Positions 6,150 to 63,971 of a stretch of DNA of 64,000 nt are shown piece after piece (within the stretch, counting starts at the first letter, position 1; the number at the start of each line of letters is the position of its first letter). The notes under the pieces are model-generated. The model saw only the letters and a list, made by a program, of their open reading frames with translations, ran no database searches and had not been told where the DNA came from. Made by a program: the position numbers and the translations under genes. The stretch is from NCBI GenBank assembly GCA_023134715.1, contig JAGLUP010000002.1, positions 79,906-143,905 on the forward strand, read 5' to 3'. The stretch is from Candidatus Parcubacteria bacterium. GTDB taxonomy: Bacteria > Patescibacteriota > Minisyncoccia > Minisyncoccales > JAGLUP01.

Positions 6150-6349
6150 GCCTGCCGCAAAAAATCGGGTAAAGCACGAAAGCTTAGCAGGCAAAAGGAA
6201 GGGGGTCCCGCCTACGCTAAAGCTTCGGACGGGCAGGATGGGGGATCCCGCCACGGCGGGATTGCCTACTAAGCTGTCCCGCGAAGCGGGACTAGCGTTT
6301 CCGCTTTCCTGCGATAGCCCCAGTAGCAGAGCGAAGCTTGCTACGGGGC
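6150..6349. repeat. cluster of GC-rich hairpins in AT-rich intergenic DNA
   Basis: GCCTGC(6150-55)/GCAGGC(6187-92); ATCCCGC-CACG-GCGGGAT (6245-62); GTCCCGC-GAA-GCGGGAC (6276-92); GCCCCAGTAGCA...TGCTACGGGGC (6317-49). Confidence 0.7.
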
Positions 6350-6352
6350 GAG

Positions 6353-6764
6353 CAGGAACACAAAACAGAAAAAATTTTCTTTTCATTAAATTAAAAATTA
6401 AAAAATTGCTGGCGAGAAAATAAAATGTGGAAAATTTTTCTGTTTTGTTTCCCGCCGTAGCGGAGCGGAGGCGGTTGCGGAAATGCTTGCCCGAGCGGAG
6501 TCCCCGATTTATCGGGGACGGAGCGAGGATAAAATACCAATCAAAATTCCGCGTCCGGATTTTCGCGAAAAAAAGTTCGGATTTCATTCAAAAGTCCCAG
6601 CATTAAAGGATAACTTAAAAAAATCGCCAAGAAGGCGGTTTTTAAATTTATTATTTTCTCGCCAGTAATTTTTTAATTTTTAATTGGATAACCAGTCGCT
6701 TCGCTCCTTGTAATTGCTTCGCAATTAAGAATAAAAAGAAAATTTTTTCTGTTTTGTGTTCCTG
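6353..6764. repeat. composite inverted-repeat (MITE-like) element carrying GC-rich hairpins and an internal terminator
   Basis: 6353-6379 is the reverse complement of 6738-6764. 6391-6423 is the reverse complement of 6651-6683 (1 mismatch). A further inverted copy of the 25-nt core lies at 6429-6453. Internal hairpins: CCGCC/GGCGG 6452-74 and GTCCCCGAT..ATCGGGGAC 6500-19. CGCC-aagaa-GGCG+T5 at 6624-43. Confidence 0.6.
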
Positions 6765-12939: not shown

Positions 12940-12987
12940 AATCCGCCTTTTCGTAGAGGCGGATTTTTGGTATAATGAAATAATATG
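12940..12987 (+). promoter_or_regulatory. hairpin-terminator plus extended -10 module, leaderless start
   Basis: AATCCGCC-ttttcgtaga-GGCGGATT, TTTGGTATAAT (-10 at 12971-76), 8 nt, ATG 12985. Confidence 0.6.
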
Positions 12988-15486: not shown

Positions 15487-18400
15487 TTAATTTTGGTCGC
15501 ACCATTTTCTGGCGTTTTGGAACATTTTTAGCCAAGGGGACGCCTGTAATTCTTTTTTTACCCCGTGAAATTGCTCCGCACCTCCCGGTTTACGGGAGGA
15601 TTTCACAGGGTGAATTCTCTCCGGCATCCATGGCCACTGCCATTTGAGAAAAGTTCGTTCCGGGTGCGGCATCATAGCTAAATGCCTTCCGTCTTCAGAG
15701 CAAAGCGCTGTAATTCCTTGCGCTGACCCGTTTGGATTAAACGGATATTTTTCAGTAGAATCTCCATTATCGTCTACATACGAAATCGGGGTTAATTTTT
15801 GAGCAATAGCATTTTCTAATAATTGATTGTCTGGAAACAATAATCTGCCTTCGCCGTGAGCAATCCAAACGCCTAATACAGAGTCCTGCATATCTTTTAA
15901 CATAATAGCAGGGCTTTGAGAAATTTTTACGGTTGTCCATCGCGATTCAAAGCGTTCAGAATGATTTTTTACAAATTTAGCGGGCACCCATCCCAAAAGG
16001 CCCATTAGCTGACAGCCGTTGCATACGCCTAATGAAAAAGTATTTTTGCGATTATGAAAAGCCGCAAAAATATCTCTAAGTTTGTCATTAAAGCGAATCG
16101 CGCTTGCCCAACCCTTTGCCGAACCAAGCACATCAGCGTAGGAAAATCCGCCGACAAACGCAATGCCGCGGAAATCATCAAGATTAATCTTGTCATTTAA
16201 TAAATCCAACATTGCTACATCCCAGGGCTCAAAACCAGCCATATAAAAAGCGCTGGTCATTTCTCTGTCGCCGTTGCTGCCTTCTTCTCTGATAATAGCA
16301 ATTTTAATTTTTTCGGTTTTCTCTAAAATTTCCTGCGGCGTCTGCTCGGGAGTAAAAGCAATCTTGTATTCAGGATTTTTTCTTTCATATATATTCTTTT
16401 TTTCTTCCATTGCCTGATTTTCTTTTGTTTGCAGTTTATTTAACTGATGACTGGTTTCCTCCCAGACCTGGCGAAGTTCCAGCATACTTTCGTCTAAAAT
16501 TACATTATCTTCAGAAACAATTTTAATCTTTTGGTTTATAGTTGTCTGTCCGATTAAACAAGTTATGTTTTCCAAATTATATTTTTTAATAATTTCTGTA
16601 AATTTTTCCTGAAGAGCCAAATCAACTTCCACAACAAGACCTAACTCCTCATTGAAATAATAGGGGAGTATATTGTCTGAAGACAATTTAACAGAAAGAG
16701 CTGCTCCGCAGTTTCCGGAAAATGCCATCTCAAGAATGGTTGTGATTAAGCCGCCGTCAGACCTGTCATGGCCTGAAAGAATAATTTTTTCATCAATCAT
16801 TTGCTGAATAGCGTAAAATGATTTTTTAAGAACATCTGAATCGTCAACATCAGGAGATTCATTTCCTATTTGTCCTAAACTATGGGCAAGAGCTGAACCT
16901 CCAAGCCGATTTTTATTGTTTCCAATATCAATCAGCCATAGCGCGCTTTTGCCGGGTCTTTTAATATCAGGGGTTATAACTTTATTAATATCAGGCACAT
17001 CAGCATAGGCCGATATAGTTAATTCTATGGGCGATTTTACTATTTCATCGCTTACTTTAGCGGCCATAGATAAGCTGTCTTTGCCGCCATCAACGGCAAT
17101 GCCTAAATCAATCATTATTTTTCTCATAGCGTCAGCGGCATAATATAAATTTGCTCCTTCGCCAGGTAGTTTTGCCGCCAACATCCAATTAGCCGAACAT
17201 TTTATATTGTCCAATTTCTCTATTTTTGCCCAGACAATATTAGTTAAGGCCTCTCCAACAGACATACGAGCGCCTGCTTTAGGATTTACAAGTATTTTTA
17301 TTGGCTGTTCTCCAATGGCTATTGCCGCGCCAGTATTGTGAAAATGGCTTTGCGCTATAACCGCCACATCAGAAACAGTTAGCTGTAAAGGACCGCAGCA
17401 TTGCTGTCTTGCGATAAGTCCTGTTACGCTTCTGTCAACCTTACTTGTAAGAAACCGCTTTGAACCCACAGAAACAAGGCGCAAAACATTTTCCAGCGCT
17501 TGTTTGAAGTTTAATTTTTCCAGCAATTTTAAGCTCTCTAAATTTAAAGTTTGCGTTTGGTCTTTAAATGTTTTTTGCGGCATTTTGCCTAAAATTTTAG
17601 ATAATTCAAGGTTTACTGGAAAAGAATTATCTTTTCTGTCGCGCACAATTATGCGGCCGTCTTCCGTAATCTCTCCTAATTGCTCATACTTTACTCTTTC
17701 TCTTTTACACATTTGAGCAAATTCTTGTATTCTGGAGGGCTTAATAAGCAACCCGTTTCGTTCCTGATATTCAGCGCCCCAAATTTCTAAAACAGACAAT
17801 GTTTCATCTCCAATGTTAATATTTCTTATCTCTATTCTTCCGCCGACCGGCTCAACTAATTCTGTAAGCACATTGCACGGACCGCCAGCCCCTTGGTCGT
17901 GAATGCTTATAATCGGATTATTTGCGCCAAGTTCAACACATGCCCTTACTACTCTGTTCATTTTTTGCTCCATTTCAGCGTCGCCTCGCTGTACCGCGTT
18001 AAAATCAAGCTCTGCTAAATTTTCTCCCTGAATCATACTGGACGCGGCGCTTCCTCCCATGCCTATTCTATAAGCCGGACCGCCAATCTGAATAATGAGC
18101 ATACCTTTTTCAGCCGGTTGTTTTTCTCTATGACATTCATTAATTTGACCAACTCCTCCGGTAAACATTATTGGTTTTAGCCATTCTCTTCTTTCTTTGT
18201 TTGGCAGTTTCATCCCAAAAGAACGGGTAAATCCCTGAATAAGCGGTTCGCCAAATTTGTTTCCATAATCTGAAGCGCCATTGCTCGCTTGTATTTCTAT
18301 GTTTAAAGGGCTTGCCAGATTATCTGGATAAATAAAGTTTTTATCTTCCCACGGCAAATCATATCCCGGAATATTTAAATTGCCCACGCAATATCCCGCG

Positions 18401-19308
18401 GTTCCGGCTACGATTAAAGAGCCCCTGCCTGTCGCTTGTCCATCTCTTATTCTTCCGCCGGTGCCTGTTTCAGCTCCGGGAAAAGGCGCCACGCCTGAAG
18501 GGAAATTATGGGTTTCTGCCGTAAAAGTGATGTCATAATTTAGCTTTTCTTTTTTGAAACCAGACGACTTCCCCGGAATTTTAGGAATAATAGTTATAAT
18601 TTCATTTCCCTTAATAGCGCTTGAATTATCTTTAAAAGCGATAATACTATTTTCCTTATTCGCTTTAATGGGAGCGCGCACTATGTCAAATAACGTTTCA
18701 GGCATTTCCTTTTTATCTATAATCAGCTTGCCGTTAAAAAACCAATGCCGGGAATGTTCGCTGTTTGCTTGTCCAAGCTGAAAACATTCAACATTGGTCG
18801 GGTTTCTTTTTAAATCTTTTGTAAATAAATCATAATAAAATTTTTCATCCCATTCGTCCATCCCTAAACCCATTTCTTTGTTAATCTTTTTAATCGCGGA
18901 AATGCCGTCTTTTAGCAAAGGTATTGTGTGAACTTGCTCTGGCTTAAGAGCTGTTTTAAAACTTTCAAGAGGTTTCGGATAATGGCACTCGGTCATTCTG
19001 TCATGTTCGCAAGAGGTTGCGTATCTTCTGGATTTTTCAATCCTCAAAACATTTTTTAATCCTGCGGCGCGGCAAATAGAAACAGCATTGGTTGAGAATG
19101 CTGTCGCAAAATTTAGACGCGGACCTATTTCAATTATCTTTTTATTTTCAATGTCAAAAAACGATTTGGTTTTTATGCTGTCTGCCAAAAATCCATCCGC
19201 TAAAATTTGTTTTAAAATAAGCTCCTGGCTCTGCGTAAGCTTTTCTGAAACTTCAACATTAAAACAATATTCTAATTCGTCTGAAATTTTATGATAAAAA
19301 TGATACAT
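15487..19308 (-). CDS. purL: phosphoribosylformylglycinamidine synthase, single-chain large form
   Basis: 1273 aa. FGAM synthase motifs (ETHNFPSGVAPFPGAETGTGGRIRD) and a C-terminal glutamine amidotransferase domain (GVCNGCQ, MMPHPER). Confidence 0.95.
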   Translation of the reverse strand: MYHFYHKISDELEYCFNVEVSEKLTQSQELILKQILADGFLADSIKTKSFFDIENKKIIEIGPRLNFATAFSTNAVSICRAAGLKNVLRIEKSRRYATSCEHDRMTECHYPKPLESFKTALKPEQVHTIPLLKDGISAIKKINKEMGLGMDEWDEKFYYDLFTKDLKRNPTNVECFQLGQANSEHSRHWFFNGKLIIDKKEMPETLFDIVRAPIKANKENSIIAFKDNSSAIKGNEIITIIPKIPGKSSGFKKEKLNYDITFTAETHNFPSGVAPFPGAETGTGGRIRDGQATGRGSLIVAGTAGYCVGNLNIPGYDLPWEDKNFIYPDNLASPLNIEIQASNGASDYGNKFGEPLIQGFTRSFGMKLPNKERREWLKPIMFTGGVGQINECHREKQPAEKGMLIIQIGGPAYRIGMGGSAASSMIQGENLAELDFNAVQRGDAEMEQKMNRVVRACVELGANNPIISIHDQGAGGPCNVLTELVEPVGGRIEIRNINIGDETLSVLEIWGAEYQERNGLLIKPSRIQEFAQMCKRERVKYEQLGEITEDGRIIVRDRKDNSFPVNLELSKILGKMPQKTFKDQTQTLNLESLKLLEKLNFKQALENVLRLVSVGSKRFLTSKVDRSVTGLIARQQCCGPLQLTVSDVAVIAQSHFHNTGAAIAIGEQPIKILVNPKAGARMSVGEALTNIVWAKIEKLDNIKCSANWMLAAKLPGEGANLYYAADAMRKIMIDLGIAVDGGKDSLSMAAKVSDEIVKSPIELTISAYADVPDINKVITPDIKRPGKSALWLIDIGNNKNRLGGSALAHSLGQIGNESPDVDDSDVLKKSFYAIQQMIDEKIILSGHDRSDGGLITTILEMAFSGNCGAALSVKLSSDNILPYYFNEELGLVVEVDLALQEKFTEIIKKYNLENITCLIGQTTINQKIKIVSEDNVILDESMLELRQVWEETSHQLNKLQTKENQAMEEKKNIYERKNPEYKIAFTPEQTPQEILEKTEKIKIAIIREEGSNGDREMTSAFYMAGFEPWDVAMLDLLNDKINLDDFRGIAFVGGFSYADVLGSAKGWASAIRFNDKLRDIFAAFHNRKNTFSLGVCNGCQLMGLLGWVPAKFVKNHSERFESRWTTVKISQSPAIMLKDMQDSVLGVWIAHGEGRLLFPDNQLLENAIAQKLTPISYVDDNGDSTEKYPFNPNGSAQGITALCSEDGRHLAMMPHPERTFLKWQWPWMPERIHPVKSSRKPGGAEQFHGVKKELQASPWLKMFQNARKWCDQN
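15561..15612. repeat. GC-rich nested palindrome inside the purL coding sequence
   Basis: CCCCGTGAAA...TTTCACAGGG (9/10 bp) enclosing CCTCCCG-gttta-CGGGAGG; encodes HPVKSSRKPGGAEQFHG. Confidence 0.7.
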
Positions 19309-20317
19309 ACTTATTACCTTTAATTACTTCTCCTATGAGAATCGCTTCCTTTATGTCATCGCTTGAAATAACCATTAAGCCGATACCGCAATTAAATGTT
19401 TTTAACATTTCCTGAATGGAAATATTTCCTTTTTCTTGAATATATTTAAATATCGGATTAACAGGCCACGAACCGAGCTTGATATTTATAGCGCAGCCTT
19501 CCGGCAATACGCGGGGAGGGTTTTCAATAATGCCGCCGCCAGTTATATGTACCATTCCGGCAATTTCATACTTTGAAAGCAAAGATTTAATTTGCTTAAC
19601 ATATATAGTAGTCGGCTCAAGCAGTTCTTGTCCCAAGGTTTTTCCCAAGAAAGAATGTTCTTCATCAAGTATTTTCCTTGCTTTCTCAGGGTCGTTAATA
19701 TCTATGCCAAATACTTTTCTAACCAAGCTATAGCCGTTGGAATGAACTCCGGAAGAGGGGAGTCCAAACACTTTCATTCCCGGCTTGATGTTTTTTCCTA
19801 AAATAAGAGCTTGTTTTGAATCCGCAAATCCAACCGCGAATCCAGCAAGGTCGTAATCATTGTCTTTGTACATTCCCGGCATTTCAGCCATTTCGCCGCC
19901 GAGAAGGGCTGTTTCAGCTCTTTCGCAGCCCTCTATGATGCCATTTACTATTAATGACGTTCTTTCAGGGATTTGTCTGCCCATAGCGATATAATCTAAA
20001 AAAATAGCAGGCGTTATCCCTGCTACAATAAGGTCGTTGACGCACATCGCGACCAAATCAATGCCTACTGTATCGTGTTTCTCCATAATAATAGAGAGCA
20101 TAAGCTTTGTGCCGACTCCGTCTGTGCTTGTTCCCATAACTCTTTTGTCAGGAAGCTCAACCACACCGCTAAATCCGCCTATTCCGGAAAGGATTTTTCC
20201 ATTATAATGTCTGAAGGTTTTTTGAGCTCTGTCTTTTATAAGCTCAACCGCTTTATTTCCCGCTTCTATGTCCACTCCACTATCGGAATAAGTTGTTTGT
20301 TTTTTGTTGTTAGCCAT
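19289..20317 (-). CDS. purM: phosphoribosylformylglycinamidine cyclo-ligase (AIR synthetase)
   Basis: YSDSGVDIEAGN, GIGGFSG, DGVGTK motifs; overlaps the purL start by 20 nt. Confidence 0.9.
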   Translation of the reverse strand: MANNKKQTTYSDSGVDIEAGNKAVELIKDRAQKTFRHYNGKILSGIGGFSGVVELPDKRVMGTSTDGVGTKLMLSIIMEKHDTVGIDLVAMCVNDLIVAGITPAIFLDYIAMGRQIPERTSLIVNGIIEGCERAETALLGGEMAEMPGMYKDNDYDLAGFAVGFADSKQALILGKNIKPGMKVFGLPSSGVHSNGYSLVRKVFGIDINDPEKARKILDEEHSFLGKTLGQELLEPTTIYVKQIKSLLSKYEIAGMVHITGGGIIENPPRVLPEGCAINIKLGSWPVNPIFKYIQEKGNISIQEMLKTFNCGIGLMVISSDDIKEAILIGEVIKGNKYVSFLS

Positions 20318-44511: not shown

Positions 44512-45261
44512 ATGAAATCTGTTATTCAATTAAAAAAAGAGTTAAAAAAAATATCCAGTCCTGAGCAGGCGAAAATTTCTGAACGGTTTTGTAAAACTGG
44601 AAAAGGCGAATATGCTGAAGGAGAAATTTTCCTGGGAATTAAGGTTCCAGACCAAAGAAAAATTTCCAGCAATTATCAAAATCTTTCTTTAAAAGAAATA
44701 GGCCGGCTGCTTGATAGTAAAATCCATGAATATCGCCTTACTGCTTTATTTATTCTGATTAAAAAATATGAAAAAGCAGATGCTCAAGAAAAAAAGAAAA
44801 TCTTTGATTTTTATTTAAAACAAACTAAAAATATAAATAACTGGGGTTTAGTGGATATTTCCGCTCCAAAAATTGTCGGAGATTATCTTTTAGATAATCC
44901 TCGCGATGTTTTATATAAACTCGCAAAATCCCCGCCCAAGGCGGGTCCCCGACGAGTCGGGGAAAAAAATCTGTGGGAGAAAAGAATCGCGATAATAGCG
45001 TGTTTTACTTTTATAAAAAATAATGATTTTAAGGACGCATTAAAAATCTCTAAAATACTTATTAAAGATGAACACGATTTAATTCATAAAGCAGTTGGCT
45101 GGATGCTGAGGGAAGTTGGAAAAAGAAACCAACAAATAGAAGAAGAATTTTTAAAAAAACACTGCAAGCAAATGCCGAGAGTTATGTTGAGATACTCTAT
45201 TGAAAAATTTGATGAAGACAAAAGAAAATTTTATATGAAGTTTTCCACTGGTAAATTATAA
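44512..45261 (+). CDS. DNA alkylation repair protein (AlkD/AlkC-type HEAT-like repeat glycosylase family)
   Basis: HEYRLTALFILI, NNWGLVDISAPKIVGDYL, LWEKRIAIIA, IHKAVGWMLREVGK. Confidence 0.75.
   Translation: MKSVIQLKKELKKISSPEQAKISERFCKTGKGEYAEGEIFLGIKVPDQRKISSNYQNLSLKEIGRLLDSKIHEYRLTALFILIKKYEKADAQEKKKIFDFYLKQTKNINNWGLVDISAPKIVGDYLLDNPRDVLYKLAKSPPKAGPRRVGEKNLWEKRIAIIACFTFIKNNDFKDALKISKILIKDEHDLIHKAVGWMLREVGKRNQQIEEEFLKKHCKQMPRVMLRYSIEKFDEDKRKFYMKFSTGKL
44931..44963. repeat. 33-nt GC-rich tandem double hairpin, in frame inside the alkD-like gene
   Basis: CCCGCC-caa-GGCGGG then TCCCCGAC-ga-GTCGGGGA; 11 codons; falls within SPPKAGPRRVGEKN. Confidence 0.75.
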
Positions 45262-45282: not shown

Positions 45283-48200
45283 ATGTACGAGCAATTCTCT
45301 AATCTTGATCAACCCGAAAAAATATCGCGCTCTAAAAAATCAAAGATTTTTGCTTTGATTGCAATAGCCGCTTTGATAATTGGCGGTTTTTATTTTTGGA
45401 GTAAAAAACAAGAAACAGCTAAACCATATATCCAGGGCTATCGTCTGGTTAATGAAAAAATTTCGCAATCAGCCGCAATCGCAATTTACCTGCCAGACGG
45501 TCTTGAAAAATCAAACACTGAAAAAAATATTGAATTCTTTCCAGAGATTGAAGGCAATTGGCTAAAATCTGACCAAGGAAGAGAGATTATTTTCAAACCA
45601 AAAGAAAAACTGGAGCTAAACAGGTATTATTCGGTAGAACTAACATTAAGTCAATTAGATGAAATCTCTGCCCAATCCATCCAATTTGTCTCAGCTCAAT
45701 CAGAAGCAGGGGAAAGCATTATTAAAGCTGATTTTCTGGTAGTTGAAAATCCAGAGATAATTGCTATTTTTCCCAAAGAAAATTCAGAAGCGCCGGAAAA
45801 TTCAGAAATTACCATTGTTTTTAACCGACCAATGGTGCCTTTAACTACTCTTGGCTATTTGGAAGAAAAAGATATCCCTGTGGAGATTACTCCGGCAACC
45901 GAAGGAAGATTTAAATGGATTACTACAAGAAATTTACAATTTATTCCCAAAGAACGACTAAAAAGAGCTTCTAATTATAAAGTTAAAATAAAATCAGGAA
46001 TGGTCTCAATGGACAATTTAGAAGTAAGAGGGCAAGAAATTGAATTTTTTACGAGAAAACTAAGATATCTTAATTTGACACAAGGCAGAATCATTTACAA
46101 CCAGCCCATTTCTATTTATTTTAATCAGCCAGTGGATTTAGAAAAAATTAAAAATGAAATATCATTAGAAAATATTACTACCGGAGAAAAAACGCCATTT
46201 ATTATTGAATATGCTGAAGGACAAAACCAAAATGAACTTAAAGAAAAAAAGGACGAAGTATTTGGAAATATAAATATTTCTGATGTAACCGCCGCTGTAT
46301 TTAATAAACTTGGATTTGAGTGGCCTTTTAATAAAGATGAAAAAGAAAAACAAGCCAATGAATCAATAATCCGAATTTATAACAAAAAAGATAAATTTGG
46401 CAGAGAAAAATTTTGGGATTTTGCGAATAGCTACTCTTTAAAAATAAATAAATCCTATCCTATTGAGGGAGATATTATATTGAATGAAATGCGAATTGTT
46501 AATGTTAATGTATCAGATGTTATTGAGAGAATTAGCGCTGAATCAGAAAGAACTAAATATGCCGCTCCTGATTTTTTTGACCCTCAAGGAAAGCTCTGGA
46601 TAAATTTTTATGAAGAAATTGATTTAAATAAAAGTGAAATTAATGTCCAAAAACTAAAGCATATTGGTTACGGAGAAAAATGTAAAGACGAAACGCAAAC
46701 AATTTCCAGTAATATAGAATGTGAAAAAATAGCAGACAAGAAAAAAATCCTTATAACCTTTGAACAGGAAAAAATAGGATTAGGGGAAACATTAGAAATC
46801 AATTTTAAGAAAATAGTTAATCTTTCCAACCTTACTATAAACAGAGAACCAATTATAAAACACATTATTTCTTATCCAAAGTTTAAGCTCTTAAAAACTT
46901 CTCCTGAAAATAATTCAAGCCAGACAAATCTTACTGAATTTATTATTTGCAGCAACTCTCCTATTTCAGCTCCTGCCAGAGAGGATTATAAAAATTATCT
47001 TAAAGCTAATTTAGATTATGAGATAAATTATTGGGGAAATTCCTGGAGGGTCGGTTATATATCTTCGCGTGAAGTATGCGATATAGATGAATTCCACACC
47101 AGCATTAAATATGGATTAATGCCTCTGGCTGATTATTCTTTAGAATTAAAATTAGAAGATGTTTTTGAACAAAAACTTTCACGCTCTTTAAAATTTTCTA
47201 CCGGCGCAATGCCAAGCTTTCATTTGAATTTTTATCATTTACAGAAAAATTATAATGTAACTTCGCCTGAAAAAACCAAGCTTACCTACGCTGCAGAAAA
47301 TATGGATTATGTGAATATAGAAATTTGTAAATTAAGTCCTTTAAATTTTCTCTATTATTTAGATAAAAAACCTAAGTATTATGAATCTGGCAGAAGTATT
47401 TTAAATTGCCAAGAGATTGTCAGAGATAAAATTTATCTGCCGGAAAAATACTGGATTAAAAATTATTTTAAAATAGATATCAATGATTATTTTAAGGAAC
47501 CTCTTGGCCATTATATTCTAACTCTTTCTCATCCTAATTATAGAAGACAATGGGGTGAAAAGCGTCAAGTTTATGAAAGAAGCTATTTAACTATAACTAA
47601 TTTAGCAGTGGCTGAGAAAAAAATTAATTCTCAATACGCAAATTATGGAACAAATGAGACCTTAAACGCAAAACAATTAAACGAACTTCGCAATTTTTAT
47701 TGGGTAACTAATCTTGATAATTTAGAGCCGGTTCCCAACGCTTCAATAAAGCTTTATCAAAAAAACTTAACTCCGGCAGGAACTTATACCACCAATGACA
47801 AGGGAATTGCTCTTACTCAAGTAATTACAGATTTACAAGGGGTGATTATAAGCAAAGGGAAAGACAGTACTGTTATTCCTCGTTATGAAAGCAGATTAGA
47901 TTATGCAAGCAGCGCGTTTTCCGCTAAAAAGATTTATTTATACACTGATAAGCCGATTTATCGCCCGGGTCAGGAAGTTTTTCTTAAGGGCATTTATAGA
48001 ATCGGCTATGATGGGAGCTATGAAATTTATTCAGGAAAGAAAGTTAATTTAAAAGTTTATAACAGCAAAGGCGATGAAATTTTAAATAAGGATTTAGAAA
48101 TTAATGATTTTGGCACATTGAACACCAACCTTATTCTGGACAAAGGAGCTCCTCTGGGAATGTACCGAGCATGTATAGATAAATTTAGCTGTATTTATTT

Positions 48201-51200
48201 TGATATTCAAGAATATGTTCCGGCTCCTTTTGAAATAAAAATTGAAACTGATGAACAAGAATATATTTCTAAAGATACGGTAGATTTAGAAATAGAGGCA
48301 AATTATTATTTTGGAGTGCCGTTGGAAGGAGGAACAGTAAGCTATACTATTAGCAGCCAGGATTATTATTTTGACCGTTTTTCTAACGGCTGGTTTAATT
48401 TTGGTTCCGGATGGTATTATCGCTATCCTCATTATTACGGCGAAAAATTTATTTTAAGAAACGAAACATCTCTTGACGCTAATGGCAAAGCGAAAATTTC
48501 CCAGTTATTTGATTTGCAAAAACTTTTTAAGAATAAAGAAGACAGGAAAAGTAAAATTATTGTAGTTGATATAACAATAAGAAATCCTCAAGGCCAAAGT
48601 GTTTCCGCTCAAAAATCTTTTATTGTGCATAACGGCGAATTTTATTTAGGTCTAAAAGCTGACAAATCATTTGGGCCGAAGAATGAAAAATTTAATCTGA
48701 AAATAAAAACAGTTGATACTCAAGGCAAGGAGACCAAAATAAAAAATATTACCTTGAATCTTTATAAAGTAAAGTGGATTTACAATAAAAGATTGGGCTC
48801 AGACGGCGGCTATCATTATGAATGGGAAAAACAAAAGGACTTAGTTAAGACCTATAATTTTAATACAAATAATCAAGGAAACTTTACTCAGGAATTGAAG
48901 ATAAGCCAAGAGGGAAGTTATGAGGCAGAGGCAGAAGCAGAAGATAAAAGAGGCAATTTAATTTCGAGCTCGTATAATCTTTATATCTATGGCGCAAAAC
49001 AGGTGAGCATTAAACCGACTAAAGATACTAAATTAGAAATTGAAGCTGAAAAAACTGATTTAAAAGTAGGAGAAACAGCAAAAATTATAATTAAATCCCC
49101 TTATGAAAAAGCTAAGGCCCTTATTTCGATTGAAAGAGGTAAAATCTTTGATTATGAAATAAAAAATATAAAAGGCAACCTTTATAGCTATGAATTTAAA
49201 ATTAAAGAAGAGCATCTGCCAAATGTTTATGTTTCGGTTTTACTTCTTTCTTCTGAACCGGAAATTAAATTTGGGAAAATTGAATTTAAAATCAATACCG
49301 AGAGAAAAGAACTTAACATAGAGGTTAAGTCCAATAAAACACAATATTTGCCCGGAGAAAAGGTAGCTTTGGATATATTAGTAAAAGATTATAAAGGCAG
49401 ACCTGTTTCCGCGGAGCTTTCTCTGGCAGTGGTAGATCTTAGCGTTTTAGCTCTTAAAGGTAATCCTAAAAAAAATCCTTTAATATTTTTCTATGGCGGT
49501 TTTCCATTAACCGTTTCTACCGCTTCAAATATTAAAAACATTTTAATAGAATTTCCAATTGCGACTAAAGGCGGAGGAGGAGGGGCAGATGAAGCGCTGG
49601 CTAAGAAAAAACGTGGAATATTTAAAGAAACAGCGTTCTGGCAAGCAGTAGTCAGGACCGATGAAAATGGGAAGGCCTTAGTTGAATTTATTCTGCCTGA
49701 CAATCTTACCACCTGGCAGGCCGAAACAATAGGATTAACCAAAGATACCAAGTTTGGCGTTAATTACCAGGAATTTCTTACTAAAAAAGAATTAATGCTG
49801 GTTCCTTTAAAACCTCGGTTTGTGGTTCCGGGAGACACTTTTTACATAGGAGCAAAAATATTTAATCAAAGCAAAGATAAGCAAAAATTAAACGTTAAAT
49901 TTGACAGCCAAACCTTAATTTTAGAAAACGATAAAATAGAAAAGAAAATTACAATCAATTCAAATAAGACCGATACTGTTTATTTCCAAATAAAAGCGCC
50001 TCCTCAATTTGAAATCGGAGAACACAAATTTATTCTTTCTGTTAAAAACCAAAAGTTAGAAGATACGGTGGAGCAATCAATTAATATCACGAGAAATAAT
50101 ACGTATGAAGTTACGGCTACGGCTAATTATACTCAAAACAATGTCAGCAAAGAATATGTTTTTCTTCCTGACGATATAGTTAAAGATAGAGGCAACCTTT
50201 CTTTAAAAGCCAGCGCTACTTTGGCTGTGTTCCTTTCTGATTCTCTTAACTACTTGTTAAAATATCCTTATGGCTGTTCAGAGCAAATAGCCAGTAAATT
50301 AAACGCGATTGCCATTGTCCAAAAAGGCCTTAACCTGCCGAATATCAGTGATAAATTTAACTTGGAAAAAATCAAATATAGGGATAAAGAATATTCTATA
50401 CCAGAAGTAGTAGAAATTGGGCTGGCTGAACTTTATAACAACCAGCGAAGCGACGGGGGATTCTCTTATTGGAAACACGGAAAATCTGATTTTTATTTAA
50501 CCCTGCATTTAACAGATACGCTTCATAATCTTTCTTTGGCTGGATTTGAAATTAATCAAAACAGCTTAGAAAGAGCGGCTGATTATCTTGACAAAGAAAT
50601 CAGAAAAGGAAAATGGAAATATGAAAATGAATCGCAATATAAAAATAGGATAATTTTAACTTCTTATACTTTATTTAGGTTGCCTAATTTTAAGGATAAC
50701 TACTTTCTAAAACAAAAAATAATTCAAATAGCGCAAAATGATTTATTTATCCAAGAGCAAATAAGCAATAATAGTTTGGCTTATCTTGCAATATTATCAA
50801 CAAAAGATTTTGACGCGAATTTAAAAAATAAAATTTTTACTGTCTTAGATAATAGAATTAATATAGATTCCAGAGGCGCTTTCCTTGAAACCAATAAAAA
50901 TATAATTTGGCGATATTATGAAACTTCAATTAAAAATACAGCGCTGTATTTAAAAGCGCTTGCCGTTGACAAAAGAGATAACCAAATTTTAGATAAAGTT
51001 TTAAGATGGCTTTTAAACAGCAGGGCAAAAGATGGAGCATGGGGCTCAACTAATAACACAATTACTGTTGTTGATTCATTTACTGATTTCTTAGTATGGA
51101 AAAAAGAAACTGAATCAAACTTTGGTTTAGATTTATTTATTAATGAACAAAAACAGGGCGATTTTAATTTCAATCCAGAAACAATCTTAGACCAATTTAG

Positions 51201-51789
51201 AAAAAAGATTTCTTTGTCAGATTTAAAATTTGGTAAAAATAATACTATTGAATTTTTAAAAACTAATCACAATAATCTACCTAATAATCTTTATTATGAC
51301 TTGGCTTTGAAATATTATCTTCCTGCTGACCAAATTCCTCCTCGAGATGAAGGATTTAGCATCAGTAAAGAGTTTTATAAATTAGATGATAAAGAAAACA
51401 AAAACCCGCTGAGAGAAGCCAAAGTAGGAGATGTTCTTAGGGGACATATTCAAATAACAATACCGACATCCAGAAATTTTACGGCTATTGAAGATTATAT
51501 TCCGGCTGGAATGGAAATTGTTAATCTAAGTTTAGCAACTGAAGAAAAATCTTTAAGATTACAAGAAAAAGAATTACAAGGAAGAGAGCTGCGTCCTGAT
51601 TTTAAGGAAATCCGCGATGACAGAGTTTTCCTTTTCAAAGAAACTCTTAAGCCAGGGGTATATGAATTTGATTATTATGTAAGGGCCTTAATAAAGGGCA
51701 AATTTATTCATTTGCCTGCAATAGCTTCAGAAATGTATTTTCCGGAAAACTTTGGCCGAACCGCCGGAACATATTTTGAAATAAAATAG
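45283..51789 (+). CDS. bacterial alpha-2-macroglobulin family protein with thioester motif
   Basis: 2168 aa, N-terminal anchor, repeated Ig-like MG-type regions, YPYGCSEQIASKL (CxEQ thioester). Confidence 0.85.
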   Translation: MYEQFSNLDQPEKISRSKKSKIFALIAIAALIIGGFYFWSKKQETAKPYIQGYRLVNEKISQSAAIAIYLPDGLEKSNTEKNIEFFPEIEGNWLKSDQGREIIFKPKEKLELNRYYSVELTLSQLDEISAQSIQFVSAQSEAGESIIKADFLVVENPEIIAIFPKENSEAPENSEITIVFNRPMVPLTTLGYLEEKDIPVEITPATEGRFKWITTRNLQFIPKERLKRASNYKVKIKSGMVSMDNLEVRGQEIEFFTRKLRYLNLTQGRIIYNQPISIYFNQPVDLEKIKNEISLENITTGEKTPFIIEYAEGQNQNELKEKKDEVFGNINISDVTAAVFNKLGFEWPFNKDEKEKQANESIIRIYNKKDKFGREKFWDFANSYSLKINKSYPIEGDIILNEMRIVNVNVSDVIERISAESERTKYAAPDFFDPQGKLWINFYEEIDLNKSEINVQKLKHIGYGEKCKDETQTISSNIECEKIADKKKILITFEQEKIGLGETLEINFKKIVNLSNLTINREPIIKHIISYPKFKLLKTSPENNSSQTNLTEFIICSNSPISAPAREDYKNYLKANLDYEINYWGNSWRVGYISSREVCDIDEFHTSIKYGLMPLADYSLELKLEDVFEQKLSRSLKFSTGAMPSFHLNFYHLQKNYNVTSPEKTKLTYAAENMDYVNIEICKLSPLNFLYYLDKKPKYYESGRSILNCQEIVRDKIYLPEKYWIKNYFKIDINDYFKEPLGHYILTLSHPNYRRQWGEKRQVYERSYLTITNLAVAEKKINSQYANYGTNETLNAKQLNELRNFYWVTNLDNLEPVPNASIKLYQKNLTPAGTYTTNDKGIALTQVITDLQGVIISKGKDSTVIPRYESRLDYASSAFSAKKIYLYTDKPIYRPGQEVFLKGIYRIGYDGSYEIYSGKKVNLKVYNSKGDEILNKDLEINDFGTLNTNLILDKGAPLGMYRACIDKFSCIYFDIQEYVPAPFEIKIETDEQEYISKDTVDLEIEANYYFGVPLEGGTVSYTISSQDYYFDRFSNGWFNFGSGWYYRYPHYYGEKFILRNETSLDANGKAKISQLFDLQKLFKNKEDRKSKIIVVDITIRNPQGQSVSAQKSFIVHNGEFYLGLKADKSFGPKNEKFNLKIKTVDTQGKETKIKNITLNLYKVKWIYNKRLGSDGGYHYEWEKQKDLVKTYNFNTNNQGNFTQELKISQEGSYEAEAEAEDKRGNLISSSYNLYIYGAKQVSIKPTKDTKLEIEAEKTDLKVGETAKIIIKSPYEKAKALISIERGKIFDYEIKNIKGNLYSYEFKIKEEHLPNVYVSVLLLSSEPEIKFGKIEFKINTERKELNIEVKSNKTQYLPGEKVALDILVKDYKGRPVSAELSLAVVDLSVLALKGNPKKNPLIFFYGGFPLTVSTASNIKNILIEFPIATKGGGGGADEALAKKKRGIFKETAFWQAVVRTDENGKALVEFILPDNLTTWQAETIGLTKDTKFGVNYQEFLTKKELMLVPLKPRFVVPGDTFYIGAKIFNQSKDKQKLNVKFDSQTLILENDKIEKKITINSNKTDTVYFQIKAPPQFEIGEHKFILSVKNQKLEDTVEQSINITRNNTYEVTATANYTQNNVSKEYVFLPDDIVKDRGNLSLKASATLAVFLSDSLNYLLKYPYGCSEQIASKLNAIAIVQKGLNLPNISDKFNLEKIKYRDKEYSIPEVVEIGLAELYNNQRSDGGFSYWKHGKSDFYLTLHLTDTLHNLSLAGFEINQNSLERAADYLDKEIRKGKWKYENESQYKNRIILTSYTLFRLPNFKDNYFLKQKIIQIAQNDLFIQEQISNNSLAYLAILSTKDFDANLKNKIFTVLDNRINIDSRGAFLETNKNIIWRYYETSIKNTALYLKALAVDKRDNQILDKVLRWLLNSRAKDGAWGSTNNTITVVDSFTDFLVWKKETESNFGLDLFINEQKQGDFNFNPETILDQFRKKISLSDLKFGKNNTIEFLKTNHNNLPNNLYYDLALKYYLPADQIPPRDEGFSISKEFYKLDDKENKNPLREAKVGDVLRGHIQITIPTSRNFTAIEDYIPAGMEIVNLSLATEEKSLRLQEKELQGRELRPDFKEIRDDRVFLFKETLKPGVYEFDYYVRALIKGKFIHLPAIASEMYFPENFGRTAGTYFEIK

Positions 51790-51792
51790 CTT

Positions 51793-51813
51793 CCACGGAG
51801 CTTAGCTCCGTGG
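51793..51813 (+). terminator. hairpin after the macroglobulin gene
   Basis: CCACGGAGC-tta-GCTCCGTGG; no T-run. Confidence 0.4.
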
Positions 51814-60977: not shown

Positions 60978-63971
60978 ATGCCTCAACTGAAAAAACTTAA
61001 TCCAGAGCAGGAGAAGGCCGTTAAATGGAAAGACGGGCCGGTTTTGATTATTGCCGGCGCTGGAACCGGAAAAACCACAGCACTGACCCGCAGAATAGCT
61101 TGGCTTATAGAGCAAAAAATAGCTAAACCAGAAGAAATACTTGGCTTAACCTTTACAGAGAAAGCCGCGGAAGAAATGGATAATAGAGTTAATCAGCTTT
61201 TACCTATCGGATACAGCGAGTTATGGATATCTACTTTTCATTCTTTTTGCGACAGAATCCTCAAGCAACACGGCCTGGACATAGGGCTTTCAACTGACTT
61301 TAAAGTATTAGATGATGTGCAGTCCTGGCTTTTATTCAGGCAGAACTTATCTCAATTTAATTTAGATTATTACCGCCCTCTGGGCAATCCAACAAAATTT
61401 ATCCGTGTTTTGCTTAACCATTTCTCCAGATGCAAAGATGAAGAAATATGTCCCGAGGATTATCTGAAATACAGCGATGATTTACGGCTTAATATGGACG
61501 AGATAGCAGTGGGAAGCAAGGCCATAAAAAGTAAAGACAAAAAAGAAATAGCTCAAATCCAGCAGGAAGCAGACAGAATAAAAGAGGTGGCTGAGGCATA
61601 TTTTCTTTATCAAAAACTTTTATTAGACAATAATTCTTTGGATTTCGGAGACCTTATTAATTATTGTTTAAAATTATTTAAAACAAGGCCAAAAATTTTA
61701 GAAAAATACCGAAAACAGTTTAAATATATTTTAGTAGATGAATTTCAGGACACTAATTGGGCGCAATATGAATTAGTAAAATTATTGGCCTTTCCCAAAA
61801 ATAATTTAGCTGTCTCGGCAGATGATGACCAATCTCTCTATCTCTGGAGGGGAAGTTCTTTTAATAATGTCCTGCGGTTTAGGAAAGATTTTCCAGATAC
61901 CAAAGAAATAATTTTAATTAGAAATTATCGCTCTCCTCAAAATATACTGGATTTATCATATAAATTTATTCAACTGAATAATCCTAATCGTCTGGAATAT
62001 CAGCTTAATGAGGCAGGAAAAATCAATAAAAAACTGATTGCTTGTGAAAAAGACAAAGGTGTTATTGAAGTTCTTTGCTTTAAGACATTGGAACAAGAAG
62101 CAAGGGGAGTGGTAGAAAAAATAGCTCAGATTTTAAAACAAGATAAAGAAGCAAATTTTAATGATTTTGCTATTTTAGTAAGAGCTAATAATAATGCTCA
62201 ACCATTCTGCAAGGAATTAGAAAGAAATGGTTTTCCTTACCAATTTTTGGCCTCAAAAGGCCTGTATTCTAAACCAGTAATTCTGGATATTATTTCATAT
62301 TTAAAACTTTTAAATAACTGCTATGAAAATTCAGCTTTTTATCGGGTACTGAACTGTCCTTGTTTTAAAATTTCTTCAGAAGAGATAGCTAAAATTACCC
62401 AACACAGCCATCGCAAAGGACAATCTATTTATGAGACACTTCAGCAAATTCCCTTAAGTTCTGAACTTAATTTTCTTTTAGGGCTGATTAAAAAACATAG
62501 AGCTGAAGTTAAGAAAAAAAATATTAGTGAAATTTTTGTGCTTTTTTTGAAAGAATCAGGATATTTAAAAAAACTTGTAAAAAAAGAAAAAGAAACAGAG
62601 CTTAATTTAATAAACCAATTTTACAATAAAATTAAAAAATTTGAACAATCCCAAGCTGACCCGATTTTAAATAGTTTTATAGAACAGCTTAATTTAGAGC
62701 TGGAATCGGGAGAACAGGGCTCCTTAGAAATTGACGCTCAGGAAGGGCCTGATATGATAAAAATCCTTACTATTCATAAAGCCAAGGGACTGGAATTTAA
62801 ATATGTTTTTTTGGTTAATTTAGTAGATAAACGTTTTCCTTCTTTAGAAAGGAAAGAACCAATTGAAATTCCAGAAAAACTAATAAAAGAGATAATCCCG
62901 GAAGGAGATATTCACTTGCAAGAAGAAAGAAGATTGTTTTATGTTGGAATGACCAGAGCTAAAAAGGGATTGTTTTTTGCTTGGGCTGATGATTATGGAG
63001 GAAATAGGAAGAAGAAGCCGTCACGGTTTTTAATAGAGTGCGGTTTAGAGAAAGATGGAAAAGAAATAAAAGAAACTTTAATGCATGAAATCCACTCAGC
63101 CCAAACCCGCCACAACTTCGCAGATGTTGGCGGGAGCGTTGCGGGCAAGAATTCAAAAAAATCTTTGATTCCTTCTTATTTTTCTTACAGCCAAATAGCT
63201 GCTTTTCAAAAATGTCCCCTTCAATATAAATTTGCTCATATTTTAAAAATCCCGAGGCAGGGCTCTGCCGCTTTCAGTTTTGGAAGAACAATGCATCAAA
63301 CTTTGTATGAATTTTTAAAAACAATTCAACAAGGAGCTGACGCCAGACAGGCAAGCATTTTCCCAGACACAAATGAGCCAAAATCTTCAGAAGAAAAAAC
63401 TTGTTTAAATTTTCAAAACTTATTAGAGATTTATAAAAAGAATTGGATTGATGAATGGTATGAGAACAAACCGCAAAAAGAAAAATACTTTAAACAAGGG
63501 AAAAAATCTCTTAAAATTTTTTATAATGATTTTTTAAAAAATCAGCCGAACATTCAGATTATAAACAAAAAACCAGCTCTGGAGCAAAGTTTTAATCTTA
63601 AAATAGGGGATTGGTCTTTAATAGGAAAAATAGACAGAATAGACGCTCTTTCAAATAAAAATAAAGTGGAAATTATAGATTATAAAACAGGGAAAGCTAA
63701 AGATAAATTAAAACCAGAGGAAAAACAACAGCTCTTAATCTATCAAATAGCAACTGAAGAATCTTTGGGATTAAATCCTGTTAAACTCACTTATTATTAC
63801 TTGGAAAACTGCAAGACCATTTCTTTTTTAAGCAGTGAAAAAGAAAAACAAAATTTTAAAGAAAAATTATTAGAATTACTCAACAAAATTAAAAATAGCG
63901 ATTTTAAACCAACTCCCGGTTGGAATTGTAGATTTTGCGATTTTAAGGACATCTGCGAATATAAGCAGTAA
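60978..63971 (+). CDS. UvrD/PcrA-type helicase with a C-terminal Cas4/AddB-like PD-(D/E)xK nuclease
   Basis: LNPEQEKAV, AGAGTGKTT, VDEFQDTN, VGMTRAK; C-terminal CPLQYKF.., IDRID..IIDYKTGK, CRFCDFKDIC. ATG 60978 preferred over TTG 60951. Confidence 0.85.
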   Translation: MPQLKKLNPEQEKAVKWKDGPVLIIAGAGTGKTTALTRRIAWLIEQKIAKPEEILGLTFTEKAAEEMDNRVNQLLPIGYSELWISTFHSFCDRILKQHGLDIGLSTDFKVLDDVQSWLLFRQNLSQFNLDYYRPLGNPTKFIRVLLNHFSRCKDEEICPEDYLKYSDDLRLNMDEIAVGSKAIKSKDKKEIAQIQQEADRIKEVAEAYFLYQKLLLDNNSLDFGDLINYCLKLFKTRPKILEKYRKQFKYILVDEFQDTNWAQYELVKLLAFPKNNLAVSADDDQSLYLWRGSSFNNVLRFRKDFPDTKEIILIRNYRSPQNILDLSYKFIQLNNPNRLEYQLNEAGKINKKLIACEKDKGVIEVLCFKTLEQEARGVVEKIAQILKQDKEANFNDFAILVRANNNAQPFCKELERNGFPYQFLASKGLYSKPVILDIISYLKLLNNCYENSAFYRVLNCPCFKISSEEIAKITQHSHRKGQSIYETLQQIPLSSELNFLLGLIKKHRAEVKKKNISEIFVLFLKESGYLKKLVKKEKETELNLINQFYNKIKKFEQSQADPILNSFIEQLNLELESGEQGSLEIDAQEGPDMIKILTIHKAKGLEFKYVFLVNLVDKRFPSLERKEPIEIPEKLIKEIIPEGDIHLQEERRLFYVGMTRAKKGLFFAWADDYGGNRKKKPSRFLIECGLEKDGKEIKETLMHEIHSAQTRHNFADVGGSVAGKNSKKSLIPSYFSYSQIAAFQKCPLQYKFAHILKIPRQGSAAFSFGRTMHQTLYEFLKTIQQGADARQASIFPDTNEPKSSEEKTCLNFQNLLEIYKKNWIDEWYENKPQKEKYFKQGKKSLKIFYNDFLKNQPNIQIINKKPALEQSFNLKIGDWSLIGKIDRIDALSNKNKVEIIDYKTGKAKDKLKPEEKQQLLIYQIATEESLGLNPVKLTYYYLENCKTISFLSSEKEKQNFKEKLLELLNKIKNSDFKPTPGWNCRFCDFKDICEYKQ
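63099..63146. repeat. GC-rich nested palindrome inside the helicase-nuclease linker
   Basis: GCCC(63099-102)/GGGC(63143-46) enclosing CCCGCC(63106-11)/GGCGGG(63129-34); lies within the stretch SAQTRHNFADVGGSVAGKN. Confidence 0.55.

Follow-up and report, generated by a model that had tools for sequence, protein, structure and literature searches.

The alkD locus and its insert

The element considered here is a 33-nucleotide (nt), GC-rich double hairpin that lies in frame within an alkD-like gene of Candidatus Parcubacteria bacterium (assembly GCA_023134715.1, contig JAGLUP010000002.1). The DNA analyzed, called the window in the following, is the whole stretch of 64,000 nt (64 kb) between positions 79,906 and 143,905 of the forward strand. 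Its GC content is 33%, ARAGORN detected no tRNA gene in the 64 kb, and no Rfam family matched them at the gathering threshold. The insert is a diverged copy of an apparently undescribed repeat family, which is named element E here and is represented by the covariance model R1. The features of the locus are as follows.

44512–45261, plus strand: host gene, AlkD-family DNA alkylation repair protein of 249 amino acids (aa), from the open reading frame (ORF), Pfam and structure
44927–44967, plus strand: match to element E including the conserved flanks (T at −2, 3′ A-run), from cmsearch with R1
44929–44930, plus strand: left junction, TC of a Ser codon, from the comparison of filled and empty sites
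44931–44945, plus strand: hairpin 1, CCCGCC-caa-GGCGGG, canonical, from the sequence
44946–44963, plus strand: hairpin 2, TCCCCGAC-ga-GTCGGGGA, perfect though diverged from the consensus TCCGCC-Tnn-GGCGGA, from the sequence
44964–44969, plus strand: right junction, AAAAAA, which continues the Lys-Asn codons and coincides with the A-rich 3′ flank of the family, from the sequence

The host protein is a 100% match to P0001, an NCBI protein labeled Candidatus Parcubacteria bacterium, and matches the Pfam family PF08713 (DNA_alkylation) over residues 7–233 (E 3e-58) as well as the PDB entry 3jxz by sequence (E 3e-7). An AlphaFold2 model with a predicted local distance difference test score (pLDDT) of 90.9 was aligned by Foldseek to AlkD of B. 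cereus with a probability of 1.00 and TM scores of 0.72–0.83. By its Pfam match and its predicted HEAT-repeat AlkD fold, the protein is assigned to the AlkD/DNA_alkylation family.

The insert (44931–44963) consists of CCCGCCcaaGGCGGG and, directly following, TCCCCGACgaGTCGGGGA. These 33 nt represent 11 stop-free codons, which are read as ...LYKLAKS-PPKAGPRRVGE-KNLWEKR, so that an earlier note on this DNA had described the insert correctly in size, reading frame and host gene. Hairpin 2 has an 8-bp stem and a 2-nt loop. As single-stranded DNA the insert folds into exactly both hairpins (−14.3 kcal/mol, z = −4.2), and none of 200 shuffles equaled this fold. Perfect GC-rich hairpins occur 10 times in the window compared to 0.57 in Markov simulations, and an adjacent pair of them is present only once, in the alkD insert, compared to 0.00 in the simulations. 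An intrinsic terminator was considered and rejected, since the insert lies within an ORF and is followed by an A-run and no T-run. The consensus of the family likewise has T-rich 5′ and A-rich 3′ flanks on both strands, unlike a terminator.

Element E is a family of double hairpins

The name element E is given to a 30-nt palindromic double-hairpin repeat. The family is defined by two GC hairpins of the form YCMGCC-nnn-GGCKGR, which adjoin each other and each have a 6-bp stem and a 3-nt loop, together with a T at −2, a 3′ A-run and a significant R1 score. The consensus reads T-n-CC[A/C]GCC-nAA-GGC[T/G]GG-TCCGCC-Tnn-GGCGGA-AA(A), and stem variants include TCAGCC/GGCTGA. A first metagenome pattern, AAATCCCNGCCNAAGGCNGG, which combines hairpin 1 with the left flank in alkD, retrieved mostly ordinary terminators of unrelated genomes, which were discarded, together with about 15 informative loci that display the double hairpin in unrelated contexts. 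A second scan used one genome per GTDB species and fixed the first 21 nt (CCNGCCNAAGGCNGGTCCGCC), leaving the rest free; it returned at least 120 loci, with 125 distinct sequence matches among those listed. In 99 of these 125 listed matches the unconstrained remainder completes the second hairpin, in 81 of them with exactly GGCGGA. The 3′ flank carries A at +31 in 80%, at +32 in 79% and at +33 in 53% of the copies.

The hairpins of E are kept through paired changes. Stem positions 3 and 13 are complementary in 97 of 99 copies (p about 1e-26), and among the 97 aligned copies this pair is C:G in 56 and A:U in 37. Furthermore, loop nucleotide 7 pairs with loop nucleotide 24 in 79 of 97 copies, where about 47% would be expected (p about 3e-12). 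Due to these pairings, hairpin 2 approaches the reverse complement of hairpin 1 and the 30 bp form a near-perfect palindrome.

The model R1 was built from these 97 copies and has 38 positions. With filters switched off, cmsearch found the alkD insert at 35.6 bits (E 1.1e-7), the only significant match in 64 kb; hairpin 2 aligns only at its outer three pairs, UCC...GGA. At the same site in related alkD genes, the locus L002 scored 46.3 bits, L001 35.3 bits and single-hairpin forms 21–24 bits, and R1 gave no match at empty alkD sites. In L002 the loops are caa and ttg and the hairpins are near reverse complements. The window copy has caa and ga as its loops and CCCGCC and TCCCCGAC as its stems, so that hairpin 2 is not near the reverse complement of hairpin 1; because of this the window copy is regarded as a degenerate member of E. 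It is the sole member in the window, and the family is therefore not visible from the window itself.

Rfam recognized only rRNA and tRNA in 18 E-bearing loci at the gathering threshold, and an E-value scan around the alkD insert gave chance-level matches only. No description of E was found in the searchable literature by concept, by DNA string or by the encoded peptides, in agreement with the earlier note, whose author knew of no such description for lineages like this one.

One site in alkD, filled and empty

Among the 120 closest homologues, the window protein included, six bear an insert at the alkD site, while at least 87 read S-x-N (LAKS-x-NLWE) and are free of it; the other 27 lie outside the site pattern used and were left unclassified. 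The inserts in the other five proteins are QPKAGPARRE (P0002), QPKAGSPWAK (P0005), QPKAG (P0006 and P0011) and QPKVG (P0023). The alignment with orthologues thus bears out the lineage-specific insertion that had been proposed.

On DNA level, the empty site reads TC^A AAA AAT (L005, L006, L250, L251) and the filled site TC, hairpin or hairpins, and A AAA AAT. This was derived from the window and L001 compared to L005 and L006, from L002 compared to L250, and from L007 compared to L251. In these pairs no target-site duplication is present, and the hairpins share one junction. The net gain amounts to 30 nt in both L001 and L002 and to 33 nt in the window, and L007, which retains one degenerate hairpin, has gained 12 nt. 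Hairpin 1 of L001–L004 is CCAGCC...GGCTGG, a compensatory C:G to A:T change relative to CCCGCC..GGCGGG in the window. Hairpin 2 differs by lineage and is always perfect, being TCCCCGAC-ga-GTCGGGGA in the window, TCCCGC-aag-GCGGGA in L001 and TTCGCC-ttg-GGCGAA in L002. Insert-bearing AlkD proteins are 87–88% identical to insert-free ones, and only 67–72% identical to those of other insert-bearing clades. Judged from these comparisons, E occupies one identical site of alkD in at least three separate clades.

A local mutational origin of the hairpins, for instance through slippage or template switching at the A-rich AAATCAAAAAAT, with their likeness to other loci being convergence, is a highly improbable alternative. 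Quasi-palindrome correction is an established mechanism by which perfect hairpins can be made and kept without selection; it would account for a hairpin 2 that varies among alkD lineages yet is always perfect, and the short tandem repeats that often flank E elsewhere are suggestive of slippage. A full-length match to a model of 38 positions (E 1e-7) is, however, beyond convergence, and the R1 scores bring this explanation close to refutation. Moreover, hairpin 1 is identical at one site in distant alkD clades, and more than 100 copies share the same 12 stem pairs in unrelated contexts.

In the AlphaFold2 model, the insert residues 141–151 connect the helices 132–138 and 154–169, and residues 144–151 have a pLDDT below 50. 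A low-confidence loop between two helices agrees with the earlier note, which had placed the insert between two conserved helices. The insert is probably present in AlkD as 11 extra residues, which are themselves probably disordered. As far as alignment and model allow, it is a real and tolerated in-frame insertion in a surface loop of AlkD, and the tolerance can be explained by the flexible surface loop together with the benign frame.

Element E within other genes

Coding copies were counted in loci of at most 52% GC and in ORFs of at least 150 codons. Here, 37 of 78 copies lie within such ORFs, which supports the earlier idea that a repeat family can insert into genes and that the peptide it encodes is tolerated. 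The reading frames are distributed as follows.

Forward 0: PAxGGSAxGG, 11 copies
Reverse 0: SAxGGPAxGW, 13 copies
Forward 2 (the alkD frame): QPKAGPPxAE, 8 copies
Reverse 2: similar, Pro/Lys/Ala-rich, 1 copy
Forward 1 and reverse 1: Arg/Leu-rich, 4 copies

The three frame classes (24, 9 and 4 copies) deviate from an even distribution (chi-square p = 1.5e-4), and the frames giving Gly/Ala/Pro/Ser peptides are favored. This is the bias that translated copies under selection would be expected to show.

E is found in at least four recG genes, three of which carry it at one identical position, LLHG-x-M^K. Further hosts are RecR, PolA, UvrA, PriA, DnaG, ScpB, an Xth-like nuclease, TGT, MiaA, MnmA, TilS, two Dus proteins, MetRS, ArgRS, Obg, CarB, HypF and several glycosyltransferases (loci of intragenic copies include L035, L131, L133, L135, L152, L174, L176, L226 and L243). 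Nine of 36 host genes function in the replication or repair of DNA, and such genes may be enriched (p about 0.008 with 10% taken as the background, uncorrected for gene length); nine more belong to tRNA modification or translation. Compared to PDB 2ash, the TGT of L130 has exactly 10 extra residues. The RecR of L176 has about 28 extra residues compared to 3vdp, which correspond to E plus its repeat flanks, the repeats being translated too.

Hosts, copy number and flanks

Element E is present in more than 100 contigs, which according to the labels on the records of metagenome-assembled genomes (MAGs) belong to many classes of Patescibacteria and to Omnitrophota, Kiritimatiellae, Planctomycetia, Victivallales and Chloroflexota, as well as to several 'uncultured' proteobacterial MAGs. 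The GC content of the loci ranges from 0.29 to 0.68. The few matches in cultured-type taxa do not extend to a full element, and the true matches all come from records of MAGs or single-amplified genomes (SAGs) of uncultivated lineages. Plasmids of PLSDB, phages of INPHARED and complete genomes of E. coli gave no E. A phage vector was likewise rejected, with two matches in IMG/VR and none in INPHARED.

This confinement to MAG and SAG records would fit a sequencing or assembly artefact common to metagenome assemblies. The copies stem, however, from independent projects and assemblers, vary in a compensatory manner, show the frame bias, recur at one site when orthologues of different samples are compared and have a conserved gene context. 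The probability of an artefact is therefore negligible.

R1 detects extra diverged copies within the same 8-kb loci, and the density of E varies from one copy in the 64-kb window and none in the 20.7-kb locus L006 to five in the 8 kb of L143. Often E is flanked by lineage-specific tandem repeats of 6–8 nt (e.g., aaaagtt, atactga, caggtt), as in L142, L150, L154 and L185, all from one Omnitrophota genome, and in L161, L187, L205, L176, L198 and L128. In the Omnitrophota genome the flank repeats form inverted arrays around E, and copies within one genome share their lineage-specific repeat flanks. An extra GC hairpin is nested in the loop of hairpin 2 in six copies (L176:6796-6854, L216:443-500, L223:1699-1756, L151:6310-6353, L199:7918-7988 and L211:1943-2013), from which it follows that E can itself be a target or can grow.

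Linkage to GIY-YIG nuclease genes and tRNA-Ser

When the ORFs within 2.5 kb of E were clustered, the top recurrent family was one whose proteins are about 80–90 aa long and carry the catalytic domain of GIY-YIG nucleases (Pfam E 7e-17). E lies within 100 nt of 9 of the 16 small GIY-YIG ORFs in E-centered loci, compared to about 6% expected (p about 1e-7). GIY-YIG is also the sole recurrent Pfam family among the 90 non-host ORFs within 400 nt of E, and these 90 ORFs contain no transposase, no RAYT/Y1 protein and no integrase. A cluster of EF-Tu, EF-G and IF2 near E was dismissed as a set of common paralogues.

Usually, a 5′ fragment of tRNA-Ser is followed by E, the next 4–7 nt of the tRNA, a spacer of 5–21 nt, the GIY-YIG ORF and an intact tRNA-Ser. 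Within the broken tRNA-Ser, E is located in the D loop (GGCC^GAGT), in the anticodon loop (CTTG^AAAAC, two unrelated loci) or in the T arm. A tRNA gene lies within 600 nt of 17 of 100 E copies, compared to about 5% expected. In L255-L260, at about 1380-2480, two modules of E, GIY-YIG gene and tRNA-Ser stand in tandem with the anticodons tga and then gct; an older tRNA-Ser is split by the insert, and E sits in the remnant's anticodon loop (CTTG^AAAAC), as in the unrelated L234. In L138 (6451-6860) a GIY-YIG ORF is placed between two E copies of opposite orientation, both at the same position (GGTGGCC^GAGTGG) of duplicated 5′ fragments of the tRNA.

The linkage was also examined from the protein side. 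Of 120 homologues of one GIY-YIG protein, 26 have been annotated with 12 or more additional residues at the N-terminus, and 22 of these 26 extensions resemble translated E by loose peptide patterns (APAQGWSALGGE, RPKADQPRAGE, SARGGPALGWE), often preceded by ERWL, which corresponds to the 5′ end of tRNA-Ser. Gene callers often extend the GIY-YIG genes (P0121-P0240) upstream through the stop-free E and the tRNA fragment, yielding spurious peptides such as MERWLRPKADQPRAG. Furthermore, three extension-free GIY-YIG genes were picked blind to their flanks and independently of E. All three have an E match upstream, with 5–24 nt between the 30-nt core and the ATG (R1 scores of 33.9 bits, of 25.7–38.5 bits across six contigs with one protein, and a weak 17), and in all three cases a tRNA-Ser begins 8–95 nt past the end of the gene. 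There is a physical linkage between element E and modules in which a small GIY-YIG gene is combined with tRNA-Ser. With their broken and duplicated tRNA-Ser pieces, these modules look like the product of homing. The alkD window contains neither a GIY-YIG ORF nor a tRNA gene, and the alkD copy is a solo copy rather than part of such a cassette.

The position of E in the D and anticodon loops is typical of archaeal tRNA introns, and the rRNA genes of the candidate phyla radiation (CPR) carry intervening sequences. Both would fit an element that is removed from the RNA like an intron, or bypassed in translation, in which case AlkD would lack the extra residues. This is very unlikely. The lengths of the units are all multiples of three (15, 18, 30 and 33 nt), and a bias to benign frames is expected only if E is translated. 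E has no conserved nucleotides left unpaired from which a catalytic core could be built and no Rfam match, and the E-bearing tRNA copies are fragments beside intact tRNA genes.

How element E may have reached alkD

On the whole, we consider it rather likely that the insert is a diverged E copy whose insertion between the codons for Ser and Lys in an AlkD surface loop was precise and left no target duplication, and which is translated and tolerated. The copy looks like an old relic, since hairpin 2 has drifted and no other E, GIY-YIG or tRNA gene is present in the window. The family as a whole behaves like selfish DNA, because it is multi-copy, patchy among close homologues, has shared flanks within a genome and occurs in nuclease-linked, homing-like arrangements; we infer that it spreads by copying into new sites.

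An unlikely, though more substantial, alternative is a host recognition sequence under selection, i.e., an uptake-type signal or the palindromic site of a conserved dimeric protein, of which the alkD copy would be placed where coding constraints allow. A 30-bp near-perfect palindrome whose stem sequence is conserved across very different genomes, and which occurs in both orientations and within genes with a frame bias, would suit such a function. The nine replication and repair genes among the 36 hosts fit as well, and neisserial uptake sequences reportedly show a bias toward genome-maintenance genes that resembles the hosts of E. The density of E is, however, too low and too uneven for a known uptake signal, as the counts in the window, L006 and L143 illustrate. 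A recognition sequence would also leave unexplained the tight adjacency to GIY-YIG genes and broken tRNA-Ser copies, the lineage-specific flanks shared within a genome, as expected of copied units, and the patchy presence among close alkD homologues.

For a selfish element, a preferred mechanism can be outlined. The nucleases of about 80 aa would cut at or near E or hairpin-forming DNA, and break repair would then copy E into the cut, either alone or along with the nuclease gene. Copies would survive only where the encoded peptide is harmless, and intrastrand template switching, or else selection for recognition, might keep the hairpins perfect. Mobilization by such GIY-YIG-initiated break repair is a tentative proposal, which we hold to be more doubtful than probable. 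The absence of a target duplication is compatible with repair-mediated copying and also with a precise insertion of the IS200/IS605 type, although no Y1 enzyme is seen near E. Somewhat more speculative still is the possibility that E is the minimal non-autonomous form of an undescribed mobile element. In this case, the GIY-YIG nuclease would cut the palindrome or cruciform or the loops of tRNA genes, and repair would paste E into new sites, either alone or together with the nuclease gene and a replacement tRNA-Ser. Such an element would have crossed phyla and would seed 10-residue Gly/Pro/Ala loops in essential proteins.

Several points weigh against this picture of a copied, nuclease-linked element. 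Neither a transposition nor a homing event has been observed, and no near-identical pair of genomes that differs only by E is at hand. The recurrence at one alkD site could result from recombination between alkD alleles. The GIY-YIG proteins consist of the catalytic domain only, with no evident DNA-binding domain, and their link to E could be indirect, since E and the nuclease genes alike occur together with tRNA-Ser genes and fragments of tRNA; the peptide patterns used for the N-terminal extensions were, moreover, chosen post hoc. With one E and no GIY-YIG gene in 64 kb, nothing shows activity in the host genome. Finally, some of the taxon labels may be wrong, and the scans of the collections list minimum counts, by which per-genome copy number and host range are not fixed.

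Other features of the window

The earlier note had also stated that the stems of the insert are the same as those of hairpins at 6245-6519 and had suggested that all belong to one repeat family. An 8-mer, GTCCCCGA, is indeed common to the alkD insert and the hairpin at 6500-6519 (three matches in the window compared to 0.35 expected, two of them being the arms of one hairpin). The heptamer TCCCGCC is, however, not literally present in alkD, which reads TCCCCGCC and has only CCCGCC in common with these hairpins. Their membership in E was rejected, since R1 scores only 6.2 bits (E 4.4) over half of the model and the shared 8-mer is weak evidence. The GC-rich intergenic block at 6170-6540 folds far above shuffles (z = −7.4) and contains several hairpins with GNRA-like caps. 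It is set in long AT-rich inverted repeats (6353-6434 and 6640-6764), has no Rfam match and looks like a separate structured region outside the E family. Overall, the earlier interpretation is partly supported, being right in spirit, wrong on the relatives within the window and much too narrow on the family.

Two further R1 matches are not significant and were set aside, at 12942-12963 an ordinary terminator-like hairpin and at 63106-63134 a hairpin with a long loop. An ORF of 2168 aa (45283-51789) begins 22 nt past the stop codon of alkD, and a GC hairpin of 9 bp (51793-51813) comes after it. Between 15000 and 21000 the GC content is raised to 0.38–0.41, the GC skew is reversed and long ORFs lie on the minus strand (15487-19308 and 19289-20317); this region may represent a strand switch or foreign DNA.

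Implications

For the window alone the outcome is modest, in that alkD carries a single old insertion, which is tolerated in a surface loop. If the wider interpretation is true, the in-frame colonization of essential genes would not be peculiar to Rickettsia, where it is known from Rickettsia palindromic elements (RPEs), and would be widespread in Patescibacteria, Omnitrophota and lineages of the Planctomycetes-Verrucomicrobia-Chlamydiae (PVC) group via an element of only 30 nt. MAG annotations would then carry a signature of false N-terminal extensions of GIY-YIG proteins, 10-residue inserts of the type PAxGGSAxGG or QPKAGPPxAE and split tRNA-Ser genes. The copies would further provide a natural catalogue of insertion-tolerant loops in conserved enzymes, and the abundant, unexplained stand-alone GIY-YIG proteins of the host phyla would gain a testable candidate function.

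Comparison with known systems

Transposable elements of the miniature inverted-repeat type (MITEs) and palindrome-associated transposable elements (PATEs) derived from IS elements resemble E in that they are small, non-autonomous and repeated in many copies, show inverted-repeat symmetry and are sometimes intragenic, and the IS200/IS605 PATEs insert without target duplication. In contrast to MITEs (50–500 bp), E is far shorter, a parent insertion sequence or transposase is not seen, and the alkD site has no target-site duplication.

The repetitive extragenic palindromic sequences (REPs), including bacterial interspersed mosaic elements (BIMEs) and REPINs, are short, GC-rich, imperfect palindromes of about 20–40 nt with many copies, which are thought to be mobilized in trans by a repeat-flanked gene for a single-domain nuclease; in all of this they are similar to E. 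REPs are extragenic, have a conserved 5′ tetranucleotide of the GTAG type and go with HUH/Y1 genes for REP-associated tyrosine transposases (RAYTs). E differs in being about half intragenic, in lacking a GTAG-type motif and in having a GIY-YIG gene nearby instead of Y1.

The GC clusters of yeast mitochondria and the double-hairpin elements of Allomyces mitochondrial DNA are small and GC-rich within AT-rich genomes, lie in intergenic and sometimes in coding or rRNA regions and occur alongside homing-endonuclease genes. By description, the level at which they were compared, E resembles them in its small GC-rich hairpins. They are, however, organellar and eukaryotic and have other sequences and sizes.

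With regard to the nuclease, SegB of phage T4 is encoded by a GIY-YIG gene in a tRNA cluster, cleaves the tRNA gene region and spreads by repair copying (PMC2330249). The GIY-YIG genes linked to E likewise sit among tRNA genes. Seg proteins differ from the E-linked proteins of about 80 aa in having DNA-binding domains and in being phage-encoded. To our knowledge, no solo hairpin repeat family accompanies Seg genes.

The closest likeness in behavior, as the earlier note had suggested, is to the RPEs, whereas an identity with them does not hold. RPEs are about 100–150 bp long, form about ten families and are confined to Rickettsia; E has 30 nt in two 15-nt hairpins, other hosts and a linkage to GIY-YIG genes and tRNA-Ser. 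By this length and these hosts, E is set apart from the RPEs. A review of MITEs from 2024 treats the in-frame behavior of RPEs as exceptional and mentions neither the phyla that host E nor GIY-YIG (PMC10969869). Like RPEs, for which no mobilizing enzyme has been demonstrated, E is palindromic, lies in frame in unrelated housekeeping genes and is apparently translated and tolerated, as illustrated by the flexible surface loop of AlkD (pLDDT below 50) and by the 37 of 78 copies that reside in long ORFs.

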